Shown piece by piece: positions 2,967 through 60,794 of a stretch of DNA of 64,000 bases (position 1 is its first letter; every line of letters begins with the position of its first letter). The notes under the pieces are model-generated. The model was not told the origin of the DNA and searched no databases. It worked only from the letters and a program-made list of their open reading frames with translations. Origin of the DNA: an uncultured bacterium (GTDB lineage: Bacteria; Omnitrophota; Gorgyraeia; Zapsychrales; Aceulaceae); NCBI GenBank assembly GCA_937930175.1, contig CALGLP010000022.1:161360-225359 (forward strand), written 5' to 3'. The position numbers were made by a program, and so were the translations under genes.

Positions 2967-3063
2967 AAAGGCATTTTGCCAAGGAACAAGAGTTTTGCCA
3001 CCGTCTTCATTAAAACAATTTCAGAATCAGCTTACGATTCAAAGCCTTAAGGTTTTCCTCAAG

Positions 3064-3915
3064 ATGACGCAATTTTTGCCACGCGGCTGGGCACAGGCTC
3101 TTTTTGGTGTATTGACGCGCTTGGCCTATCTCGGCATCCGCAGTATTAAGCAAATCTGCCGGATAAATTTAAAATTTGTTTATGGAGAAACGAAAACCGC
3201 TCAGGAATATGAGTCGATGGTTAGGGCGTGCTTTGATAATATTCGACGCTGTATGATGGATTTGCTGTATTTTGTGGAGCGGCCCAAGGAACTTTTAAAG
3301 ATAGTGCGTATCCACCATGAAGAGAGGCTCCAGGAAGCGCTCCAGGCTCGTCAGGGCGTGATCGTCGTGACCGCCCATCTTAATAATTTTCCTCTGATGT
3401 TTGTTTCGCTTGTGGTGAAGGGGTATAAGGTCCATGTTATTATCCGCACCATGCGCGAAAAAGGTTTTAGCAAATTCATGTATGATTTATGCGCTTTGTG
3501 GAAGATCAACATGATTGAGACTCTTCCTAAAAAACATTTTATCAAAGAAACGTTTGGCGCTCTGCGTCGCAATGAACTGTTGTTTATCTTGCTCGATGAG
3601 GTTGTCCCAGAAGAGGAGGGCGTCAAGGTTCCTTTCTTGGGTTCGTATGTAACCCGTGCAACAGGGCCTTTGTTGTTTCAGGAGCGTCACGGATCCCCGA
3701 TCGTGCCCATGTTTATTACTCAAGAAAAGGATGGATCCTTTGATATCTTTATTGAAGAACCCCTTGTTCTCGAGCGTACAATGAGCCCTGAGGAAAATAC
3801 GCTTAAGAATATTACTAGCCTGACGATGATCATTGAATCGTTTGTTAAGAAATATCCTACCCAGTGGGGAGGATGGCTCAATAAACGATGGATTTCCTCG
3901 CGTGCCTTAGTCTAG
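3064..3915 (+). CDS. Lipid A biosynthesis acyltransferase (LpxL/HtrB-like, LPLAT family)
   Basis: Overall similarity to Kdo2-lipid IVA lauroyl/myristoyl transferases (membrane-anchor N-terminus, HLNNF region, C-terminal core). Start placed at ATG 3064 to avoid overlap with the preceding gene. The ORF-track start at 2818 is rejected. Confidence 0.55.
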   Translation: MTQFLPRGWAQALFGVLTRLAYLGIRSIKQICRINLKFVYGETKTAQEYESMVRACFDNIRRCMMDLLYFVERPKELLKIVRIHHEERLQEALQARQGVIVVTAHLNNFPLMFVSLVVKGYKVHVIIRTMREKGFSKFMYDLCALWKINMIETLPKKHFIKETFGALRRNELLFILLDEVVPEEEGVKVPFLGSYVTRATGPLLFQERHGSPIVPMFITQEKDGSFDIFIEEPLVLERTMSPEENTLKNITSLTMIIESFVKKYPTQWGGWLNKRWISSRALV

Positions 3916-3974
3916 CGCTGCATAAGGCCGTAAACCCGAGAGTGTAAGTCGTTAAACCTTCCCAGACAATTTAT

Positions 3975-4016
3975 TTGACAAAAAGGTGTTGGTCAGTATA
4001 ATGCACATATGTGCAT
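3975..4016 (+). promoter_or_regulatory. Near-consensus sigma70 promoter plus perfect 16-bp palindrome operator
   Basis: -35 TTGACA at 3975-3980, a 16-nt spacer, -10 TATAAT at 3997-4002. ATGCACATATGTGCAT at 4001-4016 lies immediately 3' of the -10. Confidence 0.6.
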
Positions 4017-4034
4017 AACTAATGGGGAGCAGCC

Positions 4035-4355
4035 GTGAGGCCAAAAAAGACACGATGGGTCAAATGTTGGCCAGGGGAGCGATGCTTCCGTCCTCAATGT
4101 AAACCTTTAAAGAAGCTTCAAGGTGTCAATCTTACCATTGATGAGTTTGAAGCAATCCGTCTTTCGGACCTAGAAAAATTACCTCAGACAAAAGTCGCTA
4201 AAAAGATGAGAGTTCATCGATCGACGATTTCGCGTATTCTTGAATCTGCGCACGAGAAGATCGCGGATGCCTTTGTTAATGTTAAGGCCGTAAGAATTGA
4301 AGGAGGATGTTGTAAGGTTGGGACAGGGATCTTGAGGAGCAAAAAGAGCACATAG
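4035..4355 (+). CDS. DUF134/UPF0251 family predicted DNA-binding protein
   Basis: GTG start after the RBS GGGGAG. N-terminal MRPKK..W..C motif and a C-terminal sigma-70 region-4-like HTH (QTKVAKKMRVHRSTISRILESA) are typical of DUF134. Confidence 0.65.
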   Translation: MRPKKTRWVKCWPGERCFRPQCKPLKKLQGVNLTIDEFEAIRLSDLEKLPQTKVAKKMRVHRSTISRILESAHEKIADAFVNVKAVRIEGGCCKVGTGILRSKKST

Positions 4356-4364
4356 GAGGGGAAC

Positions 4365-5528
4365 ATGCATAATAAAGAGCGTAATATTTCTAGTTTTGAA
4401 AAGTATTTAACGGTATGGGTCGTCGCGTGTATTGGCCTTGGGATTGTGATTGGAACATTTGTCCCGCAATTAGCCAAATATCTTGATAGCCTTGCGATTG
4501 ATGTCAATGGGGCTCCGGTTGTTTCTATTCCCATCGCTATTTGTTTGTTTTTTATGATGTATCCGATCATGGTCAAGATTGATTTTGGCGAAGTCGTTAA
4601 AGCCGGGAAATCTCCTAAGCCGGTATGGTTGACGCTTTTTGTGAATTGGGCAGTCAAGCCTTTTACCATGTATGCAATTGCTTATCTTTTTCTTGGGATT
4701 TTATTTAAAGGATTAATTGGAACCGAAGCTATGGATTTGGTGAAAATGCCACCAGGAGCTGATTGGGCTTTAGGTTCAACCCATGGATCGGGGACAGTTG
4801 TTCTAGAAAACGGGATGAAAATGCTTTCGGTTCCTTTGTGGCGCAGTTATTTCGCTGGGTGCATTTTACTTGGCATTGCGCCTTGTACGGCGATGGTTTT
4901 GGTGTGGGGATTTTTGGCTAAAGGAAATGATGGGCATACGTTAGTGATGGTTGCGATGAACTCCCTGACAATGCTTGTTTTGTATGGACCGCTGGGGGGA
5001 TTTCTTTTAGGTGTGGGACGCATGCCGGTTCCTTGGCAGGCGCTTGTTATCTCGATTGCCATTTATGTAGCGTTACCACTTGTGGCGGGATATCTTTCTC
5101 GAAAATGGATCATTGCAACCAAAGGAGAAAGTTGGTTTAATGAAAAGTTTTTGCATCTTCTCACGCCTGTTTCGATTGTTGCATTACTTTTTACTCTTGT
5201 TCTTTTATTCTCTTTTAAGGGAGAAATAATTCTTGTTAAGCCTTGGACGATCCTGTGGATCGCGATTCCGCTTTTTATTCAGACATGCTTGATCTTTGGC
5301 ATGACCTATTGGCTTGCGAAGAAGCTAAGGCTCAGCTATGAAGACGCGGCTCCATCGGCCATGGTGGGTGCGAGTAATCATTTTGAGGTCGCGATTGCGA
5401 CCGCAACGATGCTTTTTGGCCTTTCGTCCGGTGCGGCCCTGGCAACGGTCGTGGGCGTTTTGATTGAAGTCCCGGTTATGCTGATGCTCGTTAAGTTTTG
5501 TTTGCGCACGAAACAATGGTTTGCTTAG
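4365..5528 (+). CDS. acr3: Arsenite efflux transporter, ACR3 family
   Basis: [12 protein letters not shown] and [23 protein letters not shown] match ACR3 signature regions. The protein is about 10-TM. RBS GGAGGGG is upstream. Confidence 0.75.
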
Positions 5529-5560
5529 AGTTTGCCTTGACTAGAGGGGATATTTATTTT

Positions 5561-5600
5561 TATTGACAAAATAAGGAAAGTCGTGCATACTTGATTTGAG
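5561..5600 (+). promoter_or_regulatory. Candidate cspA promoter (TTATTGACAAAAT element)
   Basis: -35 TTGACA at 5565-5570. The same TTATTGACAAAAT string recurs upstream of the second csp gene near 34790. A long 5' UTR is typical of cold-shock genes. Confidence 0.45.
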
Positions 5601-5626
5601 TTCATAAGGGAAAAGAAGACTTAGGC

Positions 5627-5665
5627 CGGAAGGCAGTCAGGATTTGCCTTGCGGTTTTTTTGTTT
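5627..5665 (+). terminator. Stem-loop plus T-tract (ACR3 terminator or csp leader structure)
   Basis: AAGGCA...TGCCTT stem followed by GCGGTTTTTTTGTTTT. Confidence 0.35.
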
Positions 5666-5713
5666 TCGAGTATGCCATCATGACTCAAGTATTCTTGAAA
5701 GGAGGATAAACAT

Positions 5714-5914
5714 ATGGCAAAAGGAACTGTAAAATGGTTTAATAGTCAAAAAGGTTATGGCTTTATTGCGCCTGAATCTGGTAAAGATGTCTTCGTGCAT
5801 CATAGCGAAATTCAGGGTGATGGGTATAAATCTTTAGATGAAGGACAGGCTGTTGAGTTTGAAATCGCAGAGGGTCCTAAAGGCGAACAAGCCAAGAATG
5901 TAAGAAAAATATAA
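5714..5914 (+). CDS. cspA: Cold-shock protein CspA family
   Basis: [18 protein letters not shown] and [11 protein letters not shown] motifs. RBS AAAGGAGG. Confidence 0.95.
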
Positions 5915-5940
5915 AAATCAACGGTACGTTGTATTTTTAT

Positions 5941-5978
5941 GGGGCTGATGATCTTGTGATCATCAGCCCTTTTTCTTT
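5941..5978 (+). terminator. Rho-independent terminator of cspA
   Basis: GGCTGATGATC-TTGT-GATCATCAGCC perfect stem followed by CTTTTTCTTT. Confidence 0.8.
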
Positions 5979-6095
5979 GGGTGGGCCCTGCAGGGCCCGC
6001 TAACTAAATCCAGGGTGAAGTCTTTGTAGGCGAGAGCTCTCTTATTGGGAAGGTCATGTGGTATAATGACGTTGACTTGAAAAGAAAGGGAGGGA

Positions 6096-6791
6096 ATGAT
6101 GGTCTTAAAGAAATATTCGTCAAATATCGTGAAGTTGTTTATTATTGGGTTTTTGATTGCTGGTGTCTTTTACCTGGGATATCAGGTATATCATAAATAT
6201 GTTTATGAAAAGAAAATTTTAGAAGAGATGGTTAAAAGGCTTCAGGCGGATTCGCGCATTGCCGAAGTCATTGTGACAGATGTCGGTGTTGACGTGGCAA
6301 CTCAGCAGCAGATAACAACGATTAAATTTCTGGAATTTAATAGCCTTGGCCAACCTTTAGCGCCAAAATATTTTACCTTCATGGGTAATATTATTCAGTT
6401 TCAGTCCTTGGTTGTGCGCTTTGTGGATAAGTTTGTTACTTCCGGAGACGCTTTAAAGGGGAAAAGCATTGCACTGTTTTGGAAGGCTTTTGTCCTAGAT
6501 GGTGCACGTACGCAAGAGTATGTGATTACGCCTGTTCGCGAGATTCCCGCAGGGTACAAGATTGAAGGTGTGTCGAGCTCTTTTGAAGAAGAGATTTGGA
6601 GAGAATTTTGGGACTATGCGCTTTATAATAAAAAAGCATCAGTTAAGGGTATTAAGAATGCTCAAATTGAAGCGCCAGGAATGAAGTTTATTCCGGGTAT
6701 TATTTATACCCTCCGGATTGAGCATGATGGTGGGATCCGCATTGACACTGCTCCCATCCCAATGATTTTAAAAGGAGAGATTCTTCGTTAA
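6096..6791 (+). CDS. Hypothetical membrane-anchored protein
   Basis: Single N-terminal TM helix. No recognisable motifs. Confidence 0.4.
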   Translation: MMVLKKYSSNIVKLFIIGFLIAGVFYLGYQVYHKYVYEKKILEEMVKRLQADSRIAEVIVTDVGVDVATQQQITTIKFLEFNSLGQPLAPKYFTFMGNIIQFQSLVVRFVDKFVTSGDALKGKSIALFWKAFVLDGARTQEYVITPVREIPAGYKIEGVSSSFEEEIWREFWDYALYNKKASVKGIKNAQIEAPGMKFIPGIIYTLRIEHDGGIRIDTAPIPMILKGEILR

Positions 6792-6806
6792 GGCTTTTGA
6801 GGTTAG

Positions 6807-7727
6807 TTAGTTTTGATGATTAACCCAGAAGATAATCTTGTTTTTGAGATCTTGGTAGGTCTTTTGGTCAAATAATTTTGTAGCTAAATAAGTGTTTTCA
6901 AAGAAATCAACATTGTCTTCAGTTTTTCGAATGATCAAAACATATCGTCCAGAGTATTTAAATCGTCGGGTTGCTGTAATGGCAATCGCAAAATTTTTAT
7001 GATCAAACTTTCCATCTAGAGTTTCAACAGAAAGAAGAAGGATCCTGTCATTTTTAATCAGAATTGGTGTTCCACCGTCAATGGGGAGTGTGATGTCCTT
7101 GTCTTGATTTTCAATAAATTCGAGATTATCGCGGTTGCCATAAAAGAGATAATTATCAAAACTGTCGAGTGGTCCATACCGGGCAAAGGATGGATCCAGC
7201 AAGAATGTCTTAGTCGGATCAGTTTTGTCGTAGATCATCAGGATTATGTGGCTTGATTGAGGTTGGAGAAAGAATCCGGATTCGGCAACCTGGTGGAATT
7301 TAATGGCATATTGTGGTTCCAGCAGCGGCGCAATTTTTGTGTAGGTGTAGGATGCGAGCTCGCCGCAAAGGCCGTAGCGACCTTCTTCTAGGATGAGATT
7401 GCCATTTTTATCAAAGCGATGAATGTTGGTTAATTGCCATGTTTGAGTTGTAAAGTTAATCAGAAGATTGACCTCGTTGCGTAGTAGTGTCGGTAGACCT
7501 GAGTATTGCAGAGGGCTGATGATAGACATGATTTGACTGTATTGAGGAATACCATTGGTGGGTGGAGAAATGGTTTCTGTGACAGAGTCTTCTTGTTGCT
7601 TTCCGATTTGGTGAGCGAAAAAGAAAGCTGCTCCAATCGATAGGATGCTTATTATGGCAAGCAAAAGCGCAAGGATTTGATAGCTGCGAAGTTTATCTTT
7701 GAATAGGGAATGAAGGAAATGATGCAT
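6807..7727 (-). CDS. Hypothetical membrane-anchored protein
   Basis: N-terminal TM helix. A conserved-looking GLCGELAS segment gives a weak hint of a transglutaminase/papain-like Cys fold. Not assignable. Confidence 0.4.
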   Translation of the reverse strand: MHHFLHSLFKDKLRSYQILALLLAIISILSIGAAFFFAHQIGKQQEDSVTETISPPTNGIPQYSQIMSIISPLQYSGLPTLLRNEVNLLINFTTQTWQLTNIHRFDKNGNLILEEGRYGLCGELASYTYTKIAPLLEPQYAIKFHQVAESGFFLQPQSSHIILMIYDKTDPTKTFLLDPSFARYGPLDSFDNYLFYGNRDNLEFIENQDKDITLPIDGGTPILIKNDRILLLSVETLDGKFDHKNFAIAITATRRFKYSGRYVLIIRKTEDNVDFFENTYLATKLFDQKTYQDLKNKIIFWVNHQN

Positions 7728-7923: not shown

Positions 7924-8346
7924 TTGCACATGAAAGTTTTAACCAAAAATACAGACTATGCTATTCGCGCGCTTCTTGAGCTTTCTTTTGAAGACGAGCA
8001 TTTTATCTCAGCTAAAGAAATTGCCCAGAAGCAGGATATTCCTTATGAATTCTTGCGTAAAATCCTTAATCGTCTCATTAGGGAAGGAATCGTGATCTCA
8101 AGAGAGGGAGGACTAGGTGGTTTTCAGCTCAACCTTGCTCCTACTAAAATTAAGCTGACAGATTTGATTAGAATTTTTCAAGGTGAAATTAAGCTTTCTG
8201 AGTGTATGTTTCGTAAAAAGATTTGTCCGAATCGGAAGCATTGCGTTTTGCGCCAGAATATCTTACACGTTGAGAAGAAAGTTATTGATGAATTTCGTTT
8301 GATCACTATTGGAAGTTTAAAAAATCAAATGATAGGTAAGAAATGA
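7924..8346 (+). CDS. Rrf2-family transcriptional regulator (NsrR/IscR-like, Fe-S binding)
   Basis: Rrf2 N-terminal HTH (TDYAIRALLELS). Three Cys with C-x7-C-x5-C spacing near the C-terminus. Stop overlaps the downstream start (ATGA). Confidence 0.8.
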   Translation: MHMKVLTKNTDYAIRALLELSFEDEHFISAKEIAQKQDIPYEFLRKILNRLIREGIVISREGGLGGFQLNLAPTKIKLTDLIRIFQGEIKLSECMFRKKICPNRKHCVLRQNILHVEKKVIDEFRLITIGSLKNQMIGKK

Positions 8347-9044
8347 AGCGTAATATTATTAAAATTAATGAAGAAAAATGTAATGGGTGTGGCCTTTGCA
8401 TTCCTAATTGTCCTGAAGGCGCGCTAAAGATCGTTGATGGTAAGATTAAACTCGTTAGTGAATCTCTCTGTGATGGTCTTGGAGCCTGTGTTGGTCGATG
8501 CCCGACAGGGGCTTTGATCGTGGAAGAGCGCGATGCTCAAGTTTTTGATGAAGCGCAGGCAAAGAAAAATATGGAAAAAGCAAGAGGGCAGCCTCCGCAG
8601 GGCATGGGTGGTTGTCCAGGCTCGATGGCTAGGCAATGGAATAAGCTAAAGGGGGATACTCAGGATGTTGTTGGAAGCTCTGCCTTAGCTCAATGGCCAG
8701 TACAGTTAAAGTTGCTTAATCCCCGTGCTCCGTATTTTCAAAATGCTGATTTGGTTATAGCGGCTGACTGTGTTCCTTTTAGTTATCCTCATTTTCACGC
8801 ACGGTTTCTTAAGGGAAAGATTTTAATTATTTTTTGTCCCAAGCTTGACCATGCTAATGAAGAATATATTGAGACATTGGTTGAAATCTTTAGAATAAAT
8901 ACCATTAAGTCTCTTACGGTTGTACACATGGAAGTTCCATGTTGTTCTGGAACCCTGCACATTATTGAAGAAGCATTAAAAGAGTCTGGGAAGAGTATAA
9001 TAATTAAAGATTATACAATTTCGCTACAGGGAGAAATTATATAA
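8343..9044 (+). CDS. 4Fe-4S dicluster ferredoxin-domain protein
   Basis: CNGCGLCIPNCP and CDGLGACVGRCP cluster motifs, plus a C-terminal Cys-containing domain. Translationally coupled to the Rrf2 gene and upstream of hcp. Confidence 0.6.
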   Translation: MKRNIIKINEEKCNGCGLCIPNCPEGALKIVDGKIKLVSESLCDGLGACVGRCPTGALIVEERDAQVFDEAQAKKNMEKARGQPPQGMGGCPGSMARQWNKLKGDTQDVVGSSALAQWPVQLKLLNPRAPYFQNADLVIAADCVPFSYPHFHARFLKGKILIIFCPKLDHANEEYIETLVEIFRINTIKSLTVVHMEVPCCSGTLHIIEEALKESGKSIIIKDYTISLQGEII

Positions 9045-9137
9045 AGGTAGCTCTGCCTAAAAGGTGGCGGAGTAAACTCTGACATAGAACTTGCAAGCAA
9101 TTCGTTTCGCAAGCTATGTCGTTATTGAAGGAGGGGG

Positions 9138-10781
9138 ATGATGAGCATGTTTTGTTATCAGTGCCAGGAAACAGCAAGAAATACAGGATGTTTGGTTAAG
9201 GGTGTTTGTGGCAAAGACGAGCGTGTATCCAATTTAATGGATCTGCTCATTTATGTTTTACAGGGTATCTCCGTCTCTGCTCAGGAACTTACGCAGCCAC
9301 TCGACCGTCGATACGGCTTTTTTGTTATTAAGTCTCTTTTTGCAACGATTACCAACGCAAATTTTGATGAAGAGCGCATCGTTGCTCTTATTAAAGAAGG
9401 CTTAGGGCTGCGCGAAGAGCTCAAAAAGAAATCAGCGTGTGGTTGTTGCGGCGGCAGCTGTGTTGACGCGCTCGCCTGGTCGGGAAACAGCAAGGAAGAC
9501 ATGCTTAAGAAAGCTGCAACGGTAAGCCCATTATCGTATAGTCAAAATGAAGATATCCGTTCCCTTAAGTCTTTGCTGCTTTATGGCATCAAGGGCGCAG
9601 CAGCTTATGCAGAACATGCTGCCGTTTTAGGTGCTTATGATGATGAAATCTTTACCTTTATGTTTAAGGCGTTAAGCGCGTTGACAAAGAATTTATCAGC
9701 AGATGATCTTACGGCTTTGGTTCTAGAAGCTGGAGCTGTATCGGTGAAGGCGATGGCCCTTTTAGATGGATCTAATACAAGCGCCTATGGCCATCCTGAA
9801 ATCACAAAGGTTAATATAGGCGTTCGCAAGAATCCAGGCATCTTGATTTCTGGCCATGATCTCAAAGACATGGAGGAGCTTTTAAAGCAAACAGAAGGTA
9901 CGGGTGTTGATGTTTATACTCATAGTGAAATGCTTCCATCCAATTATTATCCCGCTTTTAAAAAATACGCTCATCTTGTGGGAAATTATGGTGGTTCCTG
10001 GTGGCATCAAAATAAGGATTTCGAAACCTTTAACGGTCCCATTTTGATGACGACTAATTGTATTATTCCTGTTCAAGATTCTTACAAGGATAGAATTTTT
10101 ACAACTGGAATGGCGGGTTATCCAGGTGTTGTGCATATTGCTGATCGACTGCCTAGCGGTAAAAAAGATTTTTCAAAAATTATTGCTTTGGCCAAGACAT
10201 GTCCGCCACCGCAGGAAATCGAGATGGGAGAAATTGTTGGTGGGTTTGCCCATCACCAGGTTCTCGCGCTTGCGGATCAAGTGGTTGAGGCTGTTAAGAG
10301 TGGAAAGATTAAGCGCTTTGTCGTTATGGCTGGCTGTGATGGACGACAGGCATCGCGCAGGTATTTTACGGATGTTGCCAACGCGCTGCCACAAGATACC
10401 ATTATTTTAACAGCTGGATGCGCGAAGTATCGTTACAACAAACTTGCCTTAGGCGATATCGGTGGTATTCCGCGTGTTTTAGATGCAGGGCAGTGCAATG
10501 ATTCTTATTCTTTGGCTGTGATTGCGTTAAAATTAAAAGAAGTTTTTGGGGTCAAAGACGTTAACGATCTGCCGATCTCTTTTGATATTGCCTGGTATGA
10601 GCAAAAAGCGGTGTGTGTTCTGTTGGCCCTTTTGCATCTTGGTTTTAAAGGGATCCGCTTAGGCCCAACCCTGCCAGGATTTTTAACACCGGGTGTTATT
10701 AAAGTTTTGGTTGAGAATTTTAACATTAAACTTGGAAGCAATGTCCAGGCTGATGTTGAGGCCATGATGGCAGGGCAGTAG
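9138..10781 (+). CDS. hcp: Hybrid-cluster protein (hydroxylamine reductase)
   Basis: N-terminal [16 protein letters not shown] cubane motif. Length about 545 aa and conserved core. RBS GGAGGGGG. Confidence 0.9.
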
Positions 10782-29564: not shown

Positions 29565-29621
29565 AAGGCTTGCTTTTGTTTTTGTTTTGTTTAAAATATT
29601 TTAAATAAATGAGGAGGAATT

Positions 29622-30430: not shown

Positions 30431-32449
30431 ATGCACAAGGGAAAGATTTTTTGTTGGGTCGTTATTTTTCTGGGGTGCGTAAGCGTCGTGTTTGCCCAAA
30501 GTCATAGCCTAGATTTAGGGGAGATTAGTATCCTTGCTACACGCACAGGCATGATGGTTTCGGATGTGAGCCAAGGATTGACGGTCATTACACAAGAGGA
30601 TATCCAAAAATCAACGGCGACTTCTTTGGTCGATGTGATTGCTGCGCAAAGCGGTATTTTTGTCACAAATTATACAGGAAATCCTAAGGGAGTCAAGGTG
30701 GACGTCCGTGGGTTTGGCGAAGCAAGCGTCTCTAACCTTCTTGTCTTGGTGGATGGCCGGCGTACAAATCAAGCGGATCTCTCTGGCGTAGATTGGGGAC
30801 AGCTTCATTTAGGAAGTGTTGAGCGTATTGAAATCCTTAAAGGCCCATCAACTGTTCTTTACGGTGATAATGCCACCGCAGGCGTTATTAATATTGTGAC
30901 AAAAAAAGGATATCAATCCAAAGAAGCGCCGATCAAGGTAGGGGTTGAAGGAGGCAGCTTTAATTATCAGAAGGCCTTTGTTTCAGCGCAAGGAACGGCC
31001 AAGACCGTTGATTATTTTTTTGATGTTGCGCATCAATCAAAGGATGGTTATCGCGTTAACAGTGATTATTGGGCTAATGATTTCTTGGGAAATATTAAGG
31101 CAAGCCTTACGGATCAATCCTCTGTTGATTTCTCAAGTGGTTATCATCGTGACCATTATGGTATGCCAGGCGCTCTTTTTGATTCAGATATTCTTACCCT
31201 TGGGCGAAGGGGTAGCAAATACCCGGAAGATCAGGGATGGACCTCGGATGTTTTTGTCAACGTGGATCCCAAGATCCTTTTTTCGATCAATGATCAGGAG
31301 GCAGAGCTTTCTGGGTTTATATCGTATCGTAAACGATTTAATAAATCTTTAAGCGTGTCACCGTTTGGGCGTTATGAAACAGCCCATGAAATTAATTCAT
31401 TTGAATGGCGTCCTAAGCTTTCCCTGGAGGGTTCGATGGGAGAATGGTGGAAAAATAATTTGACCACGGGGGTCGATTATTTTTATGCCGATGATCATGT
31501 GCGAAGCGGGAACCAGGCCTTGGCTCAAGATGTTGTTAGTATTGTTAAACAGACCTTGGGGGTTTATGCGCTAGAGCGCATGGAATACAAGGAAAGGTTT
31601 CTGGTTAATATCGGGGGTCGTGCGATCTGGGCGGATTATAATTTCGATCAGACCCAGGTTGTTGCTAACACCGAAGAAAAAAAGATAGCTGATGGCGCCC
31701 TGAATGCCGGGGTAGGATATAAATATGGCAAGAATTCTCAAGTGTATTTTGACTATGCCCGCGCTTTTCGTTTGCCTGCCACCGATGAGTATTATCAAAA
31801 CAAATACGAGAGTCTTTGGGGGAGCGGCGGAGGGCTCAATACGGATCTTAAACATCAGGTTTCGCATAATTATGAACTGGGGATACGTGATTTTTCTTTG
31901 CCTTGGCTTAAAACTGATATGAATTTATTTTTGATGGATGTTAAAAATGAGATTTATTATGATCCGATCACGTATAAAAATGCAAATTATAGCCCAATGA
32001 CGCGTCATTGGGGTTTTGAGCTTGAAGGCAAGGCGCAAGTTTTTAGGAATACGCTTGAGCCTTTTATCAATTGGACATGGCAGGATGCTTTTTTTAAAGG
32101 GGGAGAATATGGCGGACACAAGGTTCCTTTTGTGCCGCAGAACAAGATTTCTTCGGGTGTGAGTGTTAACGTTTGCCGTGACCTAAAGACAACTTTTTCG
32201 GTGAATTATGTTGGAAAAAGTTTTGCCATCAGCGATCAAGCCAATGCCCAGGCGAAATTGAATTCTTACGTGACTTTTGATTTTAAGATAGACTACAGCT
32301 ATAAAGGGGCCAAGATGTGGTTTGGCGTTAAGAATATGTTTGATTGCCATTATGAGGCTTATGGTGTATATTCCTCAGGCGCTGATAAGGTAGGGTTTTA
32401 TCCTGCGGAAGTGCGTAGCTTTCTGGCGGGGATGAGCTATGAATTTTAG
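30431..32449 (+). CDS. btuB: TonB-dependent outer-membrane receptor, BtuB-like (cobalamin uptake inferred from riboswitch)
   Basis: Signal peptide and plug-domain motifs (LTVITQEDI, VDGRRTNQ). C-terminal beta-barrel ending in ...SYEF. Start set at ATG 30431 downstream of the riboswitch terminator. Confidence 0.8.
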   Translation: MHKGKIFCWVVIFLGCVSVVFAQSHSLDLGEISILATRTGMMVSDVSQGLTVITQEDIQKSTATSLVDVIAAQSGIFVTNYTGNPKGVKVDVRGFGEASVSNLLVLVDGRRTNQADLSGVDWGQLHLGSVERIEILKGPSTVLYGDNATAGVINIVTKKGYQSKEAPIKVGVEGGSFNYQKAFVSAQGTAKTVDYFFDVAHQSKDGYRVNSDYWANDFLGNIKASLTDQSSVDFSSGYHRDHYGMPGALFDSDILTLGRRGSKYPEDQGWTSDVFVNVDPKILFSINDQEAELSGFISYRKRFNKSLSVSPFGRYETAHEINSFEWRPKLSLEGSMGEWWKNNLTTGVDYFYADDHVRSGNQALAQDVVSIVKQTLGVYALERMEYKERFLVNIGGRAIWADYNFDQTQVVANTEEKKIADGALNAGVGYKYGKNSQVYFDYARAFRLPATDEYYQNKYESLWGSGGGLNTDLKHQVSHNYELGIRDFSLPWLKTDMNLFLMDVKNEIYYDPITYKNANYSPMTRHWGFELEGKAQVFRNTLEPFINWTWQDAFFKGGEYGGHKVPFVPQNKISSGVSVNVCRDLKTTFSVNYVGKSFAISDQANAQAKLNSYVTFDFKIDYSYKGAKMWFGVKNMFDCHYEAYGVYSSGADKVGFYPAEVRSFLAGMSYEF

Positions 32450-58274: not shown

Positions 58275-60794
58275 ATGTTAAAGAAATTGATTACTTTTTC
58301 TCTTCATCGTCCGCGCGCCATTATGTGGGTCACGCTTGTGTGTGTTGGGCTTGCCCTGATGCAGTATCCAAAAATGAAAGTGGATACAGATCCCGAAAAC
58401 ATGCTTCCCGAAAATGCCCCGGTGCGTGTTTTTCATCGGGACATCAAGAAAGAATTTTCTGTCTACGACATGGTGGTTGTGGGGATAGTTAATCATAAAA
58501 ATGCAGAAGGTGTTTTTAATGTCAAAACATTGACAAAGATTTACAACATTACCGAGGAGATCAAGGGAATCAAGGGCGTGATCGCAGGGGAAATTTATTC
58601 TCTGTCAACGAAAGACAATGTTCAGCAAGGAGGCGTCGGGGAGGTTCGCTTTAATTGGCTCATGCCAAGTCCTCCGCAGACACAGCAAGAGGCCTTGGAG
58701 ATCCGTGATCAGGCGCAAAATAATCCTATGTTTTACGGAACAGTTGTTTCCGAAGACGGTAAGGCGCTGTGTTTGTATATTCCCGTAGAGCGTAAGAATT
58801 TAAGCTATGGTGTTGTGCAAGCCATTAAGAAGATCGTGGCCAAGTATCCTGGTGAAGAAGAGTTTCATTTTACAGGATTACCCGTGGCCAATGATCAATT
58901 TGGTGTTGAAATGTTTAAGCAGATGGCGATTTCAGCGCCGCTTGCTGGGCTGGTTATCTTCCTTTTGTTATGGTTTTTCTTTAAGTCTGTAATTTTAATT
59001 GTGGCACCTATGTTGATCGCTATGGCGACGGTGATTATCACCATGGGGCTTTTGATCGGGTTTGGTTTTCCTGTGCACATCATGAGCTCGATGATCCCGA
59101 TTTTCTTGATGCCAATTGCTGTTTTAGATTCGGTTCATGTGTTGAGTGATTTTTTTGAGAAGTATCCTTTATATAATGATCGGCGAAAAACGATCTCAGC
59201 GGTCATGGAAGAATTGTTTTTCTCTATGCTCTATACCTCACTGACAACTTTTGCTGGTTTCTTCTCTTTGTCCTTTACGCCTATTCCGCCGGTTCAGGTT
59301 TTTGGAATCGCGGTGGCGATCGGCGTGGCGATCGCGTGGGTCTTGACCATGACCTTTATTCCAGCTTACATCATGTTGATGAATTCCAAGATCTTTGCCA
59401 ATTTCCATTCTTCGGCGGATCAGGAAAAAAGTCCTTATTTGGATAAGGTTTTGGGTTTTATTCGACGTGTTGTTTCTAGACATTTTAGGCTCGTGCTCAT
59501 CGTGACCGTGTTTTTTGTGGGTGCCGCTTTTTATGGGATTAGCCGCATTCAGGTCAATGACAATCCGGTGCGATGGTTTGAAGCGAAGCATCCGATTCGC
59601 GTCGCGGATCGTATTTTAAACAAACATTTTGCAGGAACCTATGAGTCGTATTTGGTTTTTGAAGCTAAGGATCAGCAACGAGAGATCTTTATTGAGCCGC
59701 AGATGTTACGTTATGTCGAGGGCTTGCAGAAAGCAATGCTCACAACAGGTTTGGTTGGGAAAACAACGTCTTTAGCGGATGTCGTCAAAAAGATTTACTA
59801 TGAGCTTTTGGGGGGTGATAAAGTCAACAATGTTGTTCCGCCAACGAAGCAAGCGGTTGCGCAGTGCTTGATTTCGTTTGAAAATTCTCATAAGCCTGAT
59901 GACCTTTGGCATATGACAACACCCGATTATTCAAAAATCAATATTTGGGTTCAATTAAGGAGTGGGGACAATAAAAATATGCAAAAGGTTGCCCAGCATG
60001 TCGCACAATACATCAAAAGCAATCCTCCGCCGATGGACGTTACCTTTAACTGGGCAGGTTTGACGTATATCAATGTTATTTGGCAGAACAACATGGTTGG
60101 TGGCATGCTGAACAACTTTCTAGGAAGCTTTATGATCGTTTTGTTCATGATGCTCTTTTTGTTTCGTTCGCCGATCAAGGCCTTGATCTCCATGATCCCC
60201 TTGACGGTCACGATCCTTTTTATTTATAGCCTTCTTGGTTTCTTTGGTAAAGATTATGATATGCCCGTAGCTGTTTTGTCGGCGCTGACCCTGGGGCTTT
60301 CCGTGGACTTTGCCATTCACTATATCCAGAGGGTTAATGATGTTAATGCCCAGAAGAACGACTGGCGCACATCAACCGAAGAGATGTTTGAAGGCCCTGG
60401 TCGTGCGATTATTCGTAACGCCTTAGTGGTGGCGATTGGATTTTTGCCGCTTTTATTCGCACCGTTGGTGCCGTATAAAACAGTTGGGTTTTTTATGTTC
60501 ACGATCATGGCATTTTCTAGCGTGGCAACGCTTTTTATCTTGCCTGCGATTGTTTATTGGAAGCCGCAGTGGGTTTTTGAACAACAAGGGAAGGGCGTTA
60601 CATGTCGATGTAGCAGTTGTCTGCTTGTCGCTTTTTTCGTTGCTTGTGCTGTGGCGTATGTCCTCTTGGGATATACACCGCTGGGGTGGAAATTGACAAC
60701 ATGGTTGAGTATTTTTGTGATCGTTCTTTCTGCTGGGTTATGCCATTTAGCATCAAAAAGAAGAATCTGTTTAAATCAAGGAGGTCAGAAATGA
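58275..60794 (+). CDS. MMPL/RND-superfamily exporter (predicted lipid exporter)
   Basis: Twelve TM helices in two 6-TM bundles, each followed by a large periplasmic loop. SSD-like region. Confidence 0.75.
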   Translation: MLKKLITFSLHRPRAIMWVTLVCVGLALMQYPKMKVDTDPENMLPENAPVRVFHRDIKKEFSVYDMVVVGIVNHKNAEGVFNVKTLTKIYNITEEIKGIKGVIAGEIYSLSTKDNVQQGGVGEVRFNWLMPSPPQTQQEALEIRDQAQNNPMFYGTVVSEDGKALCLYIPVERKNLSYGVVQAIKKIVAKYPGEEEFHFTGLPVANDQFGVEMFKQMAISAPLAGLVIFLLLWFFFKSVILIVAPMLIAMATVIITMGLLIGFGFPVHIMSSMIPIFLMPIAVLDSVHVLSDFFEKYPLYNDRRKTISAVMEELFFSMLYTSLTTFAGFFSLSFTPIPPVQVFGIAVAIGVAIAWVLTMTFIPAYIMLMNSKIFANFHSSADQEKSPYLDKVLGFIRRVVSRHFRLVLIVTVFFVGAAFYGISRIQVNDNPVRWFEAKHPIRVADRILNKHFAGTYESYLVFEAKDQQREIFIEPQMLRYVEGLQKAMLTTGLVGKTTSLADVVKKIYYELLGGDKVNNVVPPTKQAVAQCLISFENSHKPDDLWHMTTPDYSKINIWVQLRSGDNKNMQKVAQHVAQYIKSNPPPMDVTFNWAGLTYINVIWQNNMVGGMLNNFLGSFMIVLFMMLFLFRSPIKALISMIPLTVTILFIYSLLGFFGKDYDMPVAVLSALTLGLSVDFAIHYIQRVNDVNAQKNDWRTSTEEMFEGPGRAIIRNALVVAIGFLPLLFAPLVPYKTVGFFMFTIMAFSSVATLFILPAIVYWKPQWVFEQQGKGVTCRCSSCLLVAFFVACAVAYVLLGYTPLGWKLTTWLSIFVIVLSAGLCHLASKRRICLNQGGQK

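Follow-up and report, generated by a model that had tools for sequence, protein, structure and literature searches.

A candidate DUF134 autorepressor and its predicted operator at the head of arsenic operons in Omnitrophota

The DUF134/UPF0251 proteins form a family of ∼3000 clusters at 50% identity. Here we examined one member of this family, encoded directly upstream of an ACR3 arsenite efflux permease in a 64,000-nucleotide (nt) stretch of contig CALGLP010000022.1 from an uncultured Omnitrophota bacterium, and compared its locus with related loci from other genomes; the whole stretch is referred to below as the window. A first-pass annotation, made from the letters of the window, had noticed a consensus promoter and a perfect palindrome ahead of the two genes, and had proposed that the DUF134 protein may act as an arsenite- or antimonite-responsive autoregulator at a position usually held by ArsR. 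The features of the locus, with their positions in the window, are the following.

3975-3980, + strand: -35 hexamer TTGACA, from sequence reading and a promoter scan
3997-4002, + strand: -10 hexamer TATAAT, after a 16-nt spacer from the -35; the 20-mer operator begins with its last four bases
3999-4018, no strand assigned: predicted DUF134 operator TAATGCACATATGTGCATAA, a 20-mer with a perfect-palindrome core at 4001-4016, conserved in related loci
4024-4029, + strand: Shine-Dalgarno-like GGGGAG, 5 nt upstream of the DUF134 GTG start
4035-4355, + strand: DUF134/UPF0251 protein of 106 amino acids with a GTG start, a predicted autorepressor and metalloid sensor (Pfam, NCBIfam, alignments and an AlphaFold2 (AF2) model)
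4365-5528, + strand: ACR3 arsenite efflux permease of 387 amino acids, with GGAGGGG upstream (TIGR00832 and Pfam SBF)

The DUF134 protein matched PF02001 at 69.3 bits (cut-off 27) with residues 2-92 covered, and gave weaker matches to the sigma-70 region 4 and helix-turn-helix (HTH) models of Pfam; the NCBIfam model PRK04217 scored 53.9 bits, under its equivalog cut-off of 115. Conservation in the family was measured on 118 and 150 family sequences, and the residues found to be invariant (P13, P20, E37, E39, R42, L43, T64, R67 and IEGG at 88-91) are all present in the window protein. The permease scored 379.2 bits with TIGR00832 (curated cut-off 282.8), also matched Pfam SBF, and its translation holds both the conserved membrane cysteine motif P-C-T-A-M-V and the glutamate motif N-H-F-E (within SNHFEVAIA); in studies of CgAcr3 this cysteine and this glutamate are reportedly required for transport. 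The matches to PF02001 and TIGR00832 bear out the first-pass reading that the palindrome stands upstream of a DUF134 gene and an ACR3 gene. The two genes are separated by 9 nt with no terminator between them, and are presumably co-transcribed. The same DUF134-acr3 pair was found in several independent samples and also at four of the related loci described below (L001, L006, L018 and L020). As a separate observation, the window ACR3 is longer (387 amino acids) than the 327-position family profile and has an insertion of ∼45-50 residues at residues ∼110-160, which is apparently common, as judged by length, to its 77-89%-identical relatives in L001, L006, L018, L020 and L047 and is missing from the other DUF134-linked ACR3 clades.

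The promoter TTGACA-16-TATAAT at 3975-4002, as it had originally been read, was recovered as the sole 12/12 match in a scan of positions 3000-7000. The palindrome that had been placed directly after its -10 hexamer is indeed a perfect 16-bp palindrome (ATGCACATATGTGCAT, 4001-4016), although it shares two bases (4001-4002) with that hexamer; its extent as an operator needed correction, since the conserved symmetric element is the 20-mer at 3999-4018. The half-sites ATGCAC and GTGCAT stand ∼10 bp apart, centre to centre. Even with up to 3 mismatches tolerated ATGCACATATGTGCAT has no second match in the window, and the pattern ATGMAC-N4-GTKCAT has a single occurrence in the same 64 kb. The -10 hexamer at 3997-4002 predicts a transcription start near 4009, in the middle of the palindrome, so that the left palindrome arm would lie outside the RNA.

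Counts of palindromes within the window were considered as an argument for function and dropped, for we observed six perfect 16-bp palindromes where 1.4 were expected, and at least one such palindrome was present in 69% of first-order Markov simulations of the window. By chance statistics the palindrome of this locus is thus unexceptional, and the functional case therefore rests on comparison across genomes. The other five perfect 16-bp palindromes lie at 5983-5998, 29590-29605, 31995-32010, 52293-52308 and 60173-60188 (GGGCCCTGCAGGGCCC, TTTAAAATATTTTAAA, CAATGACGCGTCATTG, GATTATCCGGATAATC and GATCAAGGCCTTGATC, respectively); the one at 29590 is just 5' of an apparent Shine-Dalgarno sequence and start codon.

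More than 1500 relatives of the window DUF134 protein were found, the closest being 73-88% identical and their named sources mostly Candidatus Omnitrophota. From a one-genome-per-species scan we obtained 80 loci with DUF134 homologs at 61-91% identity, mostly from metagenome-assembled genomes (MAGs) labelled Omnitrophota. Open reading frames (ORFs) were called and clustered, the recurrent clusters were identified by curated models, and 79 of the 80 loci were informative for downstream genes. In all cases the DUF134 gene is upstream of the ars genes and co-oriented with them, and at 78 of the 79 informative loci at least one ars gene lies within the downstream same-strand run. The first gene after DUF134 is most often ArsP_1 (53 loci), followed by ACR3 (14), ArsM (5), ArsC (3), ArsF (2), a thioredoxin-like gene (1) and another gene (1); ACR3 is found at most 4 kb from DUF134 in 43 of the 80 loci. 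The recurrent families are listed here with the number of loci at which they occur.

ArsP_1-family permease (PF03773): 60 loci
MTH895/ArsE-family thioredoxin-like protein, above cut-off: 43 loci
ACR3, in two clades that both match TIGR00832, the more distant at 459 bits: 42-43 loci
ArsG-family permease (285 bits, cut-off 200): 41 loci
ArsF-family protein, above cut-off: 40 loci
Arsenite methyltransferase ArsM (365 bits, cut-off 263): 33 loci
ArsC-like protein of the low-molecular-weight phosphatase type, a best match yet below the curated cut-off: 15-17 loci

The proposal of the first-pass annotation had been made to depend on the DUF134-acr3 adjacency being recurrent, and these counts indicate that, for this clade, it is. 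Its suggestion that DUF134 stands in place of ArsR is likewise supported within these loci: TBLASTN with E. coli ArsR gave no match in the window and revealed one ArsR-like ORF among the 80 loci (in L002). In the arrangement found here the regulator gene comes first in an ars operon, presumably co-transcribed, under a promoter that carries its own predicted operator, with a 9-nt gap to acr3 and the operator at -10/+1 in the window, and with ars genes downstream in 78 of 79 loci. The ArsR-like ORF of L002 (3408-3638, minus strand; 36% identity to E. coli ArsR over 78 amino acids) is divergent and lies just 5' of the DUF134 promoter, where there may be double control. Two further observations concern these operons. 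A cation-diffusion-facilitator transporter (TIGR01297; ZitB-like) is encoded between ArsP and ArsM in the operons of L032 (5485-6375), L038, L045 and L050. Some MAGs have several ars operons (L004 and L007 in JAHILY01; L028, L054 and L080 in JAZDPX01), each with its own DUF134 gene and operator, and since paralogous repressors would then share identical half-sites within one MAG, cross-talk is to be expected.

Of the 80 loci, 78 have the 20-mer, in the form TTATGNAC-N4-GTNCATAA, 9-20 nt 5' of the DUF134 start codon, the exceptions being L074, where it is 92 nt upstream, and L008, where its left half has decayed. Elements matching the consensus TTATG(C/A)AC-N4-GT(G/T)CATAA occur as one copy per locus in nearly all of the 80, at the DUF134 promoter, and the exact pattern ATGMAC-N4-GTKCAT was found once in each of 66 loci and nowhere else in the ∼500 kb that the loci comprise. 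The arms of the operator are conserved in sequence, the neighbouring intergenic DNA is not, and the central 4 bases are variable. Half-site centres ∼10 bp apart have the geometry expected for a dimer in two successive major grooves. Conservation both in sequence and in position across nearly all of the 80 loci marks the palindrome as more than a chance occurrence. Of 79 loci, 73 have a promoter-like -35/-10 pair with 8-12 of 12 matches directly upstream, and in 68 of them the pair reaches 10-12 matches. The -10 hexamer overlaps the first four operator bases in 28 loci of the GCAC clade, to which the window belongs, and ends 2 nt 5' of the operator in 37. Since the operator thus lies over the -10 hexamer and the start site, its position is that of a repressor site and not that of a MerR-like or a class I/II activator. 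We also considered and rejected membership of the MerR type itself, for the spacer is 16 nt (not 19-20 bp), the operator is at or after the -10, and there was no match to a MerR domain.

One position of the operator arms varies symmetrically, giving either GCAC/GTGC, as in the window, or GAAC/GTTC, and this position follows residue 63 of the DUF134 protein. Ser63 goes with GCAC/GTGC in 29 loci, to which can be added L027, where Ser63 is accompanied by a half-switched operator; 49 loci combine Pro63 with GAAC/GTTC, and one more Pro63 locus has G for A in its left half-site. None of the 80 loci contradicts this correspondence. Residue 63 and operator must have switched independently at least three times on a neighbour-joining tree for which the helix was masked, once in the group formed by L056, L060 and L072, whose nearest relatives are all Pro63/GAAC.

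A PDB sequence search found no solved DUF134 structure, and its sole match was the HTH of DeoR at E = 0.2. The AF2 model, built from a 118-sequence alignment (predicted local distance difference test score (pLDDT) 82.5, predicted template modelling score 0.71), has a three-helix HTH (35-46, 51-58 and 62-81) with short flanking strands at 7-9, 16-18, 30-33, 85-88 and 93-95, and the recognition motif H61-R62-S63-T64-I65-S66-R67 belongs to the HTH formed by helices 51-58 and 62-81. Foldseek comparison of the whole fold with the PDB gave nothing at E ≤ 1e-3 and only HTH-core matches, the best of which was the DNA-binding domain of B. subtilis DeoR on its operator (7bhy; 36% identity and a root-mean-square deviation of 0.6 Å over 39 residues), followed by region 4 domains of extracytoplasmic function sigma factors. 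DeoR, of the SorC family (7bhy, 8r7y), has the motif S-R34-P35-T-V-S-R39 and a palindromic site, ATTGAACAAAATTTCAAT, whose TTGAACA half-sites are about one DNA turn apart; R34 and R39 make base contacts, and a beta-linker after the HTH contributes to dimerisation (PMC11229326). In the DUF134 protein the aligned counterparts of its R34, P35 and R39 are R62, residue 63 and R67. DeoR therefore presents a Pro63-type motif bound to TTGAACA sites, and the TGAAC core is shared with the operators of Pro63-type DUF134 proteins. The likeness of the SR-P-T-x-SR motif and TTGAAC palindrome is confined to the HTH, since DeoR has a ∼250-amino acid sugar-phosphate effector domain and is a tetramer, whereas the window protein has 106 amino acids and lacks such a domain. 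Membership of the SorC/DeoR group was rejected on these grounds, as only the HTH core (39 residues) matches and the protein ends at residue 106.

For comparison we used as a control 80 metagenome loci of generic DUF134 proteins (L081-L160). The metagenome scan was made with a narrow 12-sequence alignment, a broad one of 84 generic representatives having proved too diverse. There was no ACR3 in any of these 80 loci, and no ars operon was linked to their DUF134 genes; we did notice an ArsP-family gene at a distance of ∼2.5 kb in one locus, closely preceded by an ArsR-like match, ArsC-like genes upstream in two loci and weak methyltransferase matches in two. The usual neighbour of a generic DUF134 gene, often the next gene, encodes instead a protein of ∼130 amino acids with a NifX-like domain. 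Generic DUF134 proteins are usually longer, with C-terminal tails of which many are Cys-rich and zinc-ribbon-like, and their recognition helix reads VSRQTFGRI. In 53 of 79 generic loci the DUF134 gene has in its own promoter a sister palindrome, TTATG(A/G)GC-ATAT-GC(T/C)CATAA, located between the TTGACA -35 and the TATAAT -10 (near 245-275 in L081 and near 3950-3985 in L090). Generic and ars-linked proteins thus have the same domain and the same grammar of an own-promoter palindrome, TTATGNNC-N4-GNNCATAA, and they differ in the position of the operator, which is in the -35/-10 spacer in the generic family and at -10/+1 in the ars clade, in the neighbouring genes, which are NifX-like and not ars genes, and in the four cysteines discussed below (C17, C22, C92 and C93), which the generic proteins lack. 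Given the sister palindrome at generic promoters, binding to the own promoter looks like a property of the whole family, and the pattern suggests family-wide autoregulation by DUF134. The first-pass annotation had also made its proposal hang on recognition of the palindrome by the DUF134 protein, and the computational evidence ties the two together: there is one copy per locus at the DUF134 promoter, its variable base tracks residue 63, and generic DUF134 genes have a sister palindrome of their own.

The window DUF134 protein has cysteines at positions 11, 17, 22, 92 and 93. The pair C92-C93, in the motif IEGGCC, is invariant in 81 locus sequences, among which C17 and C22 are each lost occasionally but never both. 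In 180 further cluster representatives of the clade the cysteines are present in 179 (C11), 174 (C17), 165 (C22), 174 (C92) and 178 (C93) sequences. Among 150 representatives of the wider family, position 17 is Y or F, position 22 is G in 124 of the 150, position 92 is N, P, S or T, and position 93 is Y, F or V. As C17, C22, C92 and C93 are absent from the wider family, the ars-linked branch has gained these four cysteines, in the strands to either side of the HTH, and because they are specific to the ars-linked clade the idea of arsenite sensing gains a concrete basis. In AfArsR (Acidithiobacillus ferrooxidans) and CgArsR (Corynebacterium glutamicum) the As(III) site reportedly consists of a vicinal cysteine pair and a third cysteine outside the DNA-binding helix. 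These two sites arose convergently at different positions. C92-C93 together with C17 or C22 follows the same pattern; AfArsR and CgArsR are winged-helix proteins of the ArsR/SmtB family, whereas the DUF134 cysteines are grafted on another scaffold. We also noted a divergent DUF134 protein (P0124; L165, 1-1001) that keeps the C-terminal Cys-Cys pair and lacks C17 and C22. Upstream of its gene, at the contig edge, is the right half of a GCAC-type operator (ACATATGTGCATAA), and downstream is a gene for a MIP-family channel, not ACR3 or ArsP; As(OH)3-conducting aquaglyceroporins are members of the MIP family. A separate clade having only the cysteine pair was sought from P0124, and the search gave the same Omnitrophota clade.

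We propose that the DUF134 protein acts as an autoregulated repressor of the two-gene DUF134-acr3 operon, in the role that ArsR has in most bacteria. A homodimer would set its two sigma-70-region-4-like HTH units into successive major grooves of TAATGCAC-ATAT-GTGCATAA, and the bound protein would block RNA polymerase, as the 20-bp operator overlaps the -10 and the start of a promoter of consensus strength. Trivalent arsenic would enter the cell as As(III), possibly also Sb(III) or methylarsenite, and would be captured by the thiolates of the C92-C93 pair plus C17 and/or C22, which lie on beta-strands N- and C-terminal to the HTH. The metalloid-bound protein would then change and leave the DNA, so that both the regulator and the ACR3 pump are made. 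That the DUF134 protein binds the window operator and autoregulates the operon is, on the comparative evidence, very probable. The inducer is probably an arsenical that the cysteines bind; given the frequency of ArsP and ArsM in these operons, methylarsenite is an equally plausible candidate for that part. The model taken whole, an operator-bound DUF134 autorepressor released by a trivalent arsenical, we regard as rather likely.

Several points weigh against this model. DNA binding, oligomeric state and metalloid binding are all things that we infer, as are dimerisation, repression in preference to activation and the identity of the inducer. The co-variation of residue 63 with the operator is partly phylogenetic, with ∼3 independent events behind it, and generic proteins with Pro63 together with Gly66 pair with GAGC, so that residue 63 is not the sole determinant of specificity. 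The generic control set is taxonomically narrow, as it consists of the 80 loci nearest to a single representative, and it includes many short contigs. The absence of ArsR was judged on the window and the related loci only. In the AF2 model the C-terminal segment that contains C92-C93 has moderate confidence (block pLDDT 59). Finally, four or five clustered cysteines could instead be ligands of Zn or of an Fe-S cluster.

This last point belongs to the alternative that survives best, in which the DUF134 protein is an autorepressor whose cysteines bind Zn structurally, carry an Fe-S cluster or respond to thiol or redox stress, or in which feedback regulation by the protein needs no ligand. A set of four to five conserved cysteines is as able to ligate Zn or Fe-S as As(III), and the linkage of generic DUF134 genes to NifX-like metallocluster-carrier domains, along with the zinc-ribbon-like tails of many generic proteins, may reflect a metal-cluster theme in the family. 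We nevertheless consider this alternative unlikely. The four cysteines are absent from the generic family and present only in the clade that heads ars operons, where 78 of 79 loci have arsenic-specific genes downstream, and the loss of C17 and C22 singly but never jointly is more in keeping with three-coordinate binding and one spare ligand than with a fixed site of four ligands. A vicinal pair plus a third cysteine is also the known solution to As(III) binding in AfArsR and CgArsR.

The mechanism could also be as proposed but with an organoarsenical, either methylarsenite or an aromatic arsenical in trivalent form, as the inducer in place of As(III) or Sb(III). This would suit the prevalence of the ArsP_1-family permease, the commonest gene after DUF134 (53 of 79), and the frequent presence in the operons of ArsM and of ArsE/F/G-like proteins, which are annotated for organoarsenical handling; moreover, the CC pair is the only invariant cysteine element, and two-Cys ArsR variants selective for MAs(III) exist. 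However, ACR3, an As(III)/Sb(III) pump, is the only or the first cargo in the window and in 13 other loci, and the cysteine set is identical in ACR3-only and ArsP-first operons, so that a strictly organoarsenical inducer seems to us improbable.

Far less credible is the possibility that the palindrome is the site of another protein, LexA-type or some other global regulator, with DUF134 a mere passenger. The commoner operator variant, TGAACATATGTTCA, does hold a perfect GAAC-N4-GTTC, which is the core of the Gram-positive SOS (Cheo) box bound by LexA-type repressors. The core in the window is GCAC/GTGC and not GAAC, however, and across the ∼500 kb of loci and the 64-kb window there is a single site per locus, only before DUF134. 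Its variable base follows residue 63 of the DUF134 helix, generic DUF134 genes of other lineages have their own matching variant, and the nearest solved HTH, with its SRPT motif, binds TTGAAC half-sites. Assignment to the LexA/Cheo-box type was rejected for the first three of these reasons: one site per locus, the GCAC variant and co-variation with the helix. That the palindrome is an RNA hairpin of the 5' leader, acting in stability, translation or attenuation, or a product of chance, we regard as next to negligible, for although the C-to-A/G-to-T change would also be compensatory in an RNA stem and perfect 16-bp palindromes are common in the window, by standard promoter geometry a start near 4009 leaves the left arm untranscribed, folding of the leader from that start gave a lower stability than that of shuffled sequences (z = +1.46), no Rfam family matched the promoter or leader of DUF134-acr3, the arms are conserved in sequence beyond pairing while the central 4 nt vary, single-arm changes disrupt pairing in L027, L055 and L073, and conservation over 80 loci rules out chance.

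The proposed repressor can be set beside known arsenic regulators. ArsR, as in the E. coli R773 and chromosomal ars operons, is a small autorepressor encoded by the first gene, with a dyad operator over the promoter, and binds As(III)/Sb(III) by cysteine thiolates. The operon logic of the DUF134 system matches that of ArsR/SmtB, but the family and fold are unrelated, and the ELCVCDLC metal site is absent from the window protein. We found no Pfam or NCBIfam match to the winged-helix models HTH_5 and HTH_20 in the window protein, and the fold search led to sigma-70 region 4 and DeoR, not to ArsR. ArsD of R773 is a trans-acting ars regulator outside the ArsR family and also a metallochaperone, in which vicinal cysteine pairs bind As(III). 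It differs from the DUF134 protein in having a thioredoxin-like fold without an HTH and in working beside ArsR, not in its place. Neither ArsD nor ArsA was seen among the ORF clusters of the DUF134 loci.

Downstream of the operon we made some observations on other genes of the window. Within 5563-5972, a promoter-like TTGACA-17-CATACT at 5563-5591 lies 5' of a cold-shock protein gene (5714-5914), whose long leader matched the Rfam cspA thermoregulator RF01766 at a sub-threshold 33.8 bits (gathering threshold 78). A terminator-like hairpin at 5630-5650 within this leader may also terminate the DUF134-acr3 transcript. Further along, at 7924-10781, translations alone indicate an apparent Rrf2-like regulator (7924-8346), a Cys-rich ferredoxin-like protein (8343-9044) and a 547-amino acid hybrid-cluster-like protein (9138-10781).

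To our knowledge nearly all characterised ars repressors belong to the ArsR/SmtB family. Literature searches whose reach left most subscription journals outside returned, in titles and abstracts, no published link of DUF134/UPF0251/COG1342 to arsenic or to regulation, and no earlier description of this system, whether for arsenic in Omnitrophota or for ArsEFG, ArsP or novel regulators. The circuit of an autorepressed ars operon is classical; the sensor family, the operator and the cysteine site appear to be undescribed. Extending the proposal beyond this operon, we lean slightly towards the view that DUF134/UPF0251 is an unrecognised family of autoregulated HTH repressors with one operator grammar, its half-site specificity set by recognition-helix residues 61-66, and that the Omnitrophota branch is a new structural class of metalloid sensor, with an As(III)/organoarsenical cysteine site (C92-C93 plus C17/C22), that has displaced ArsR phylum-wide.

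If true, this would give DUF134/UPF0251 its first concrete and testable function, with a predicted operator and a partial code of protein-DNA recognition, and would lengthen the short list of arsenic-sensing transcription factors by a scaffold other than ArsR, as a further convergent gain of cysteines for As(III). A repressor of 106 amino acids with a 20-bp operator and a consensus promoter would also be a compact candidate for arsenic biosensors orthogonal to ArsR. The Omnitrophota are uncultured, yet E. coli or an in vitro system should suffice for work on this regulatory unit. Where arsR is the marker in metagenomic surveys of arsenic cycling, these Omnitrophota operons would be overlooked.

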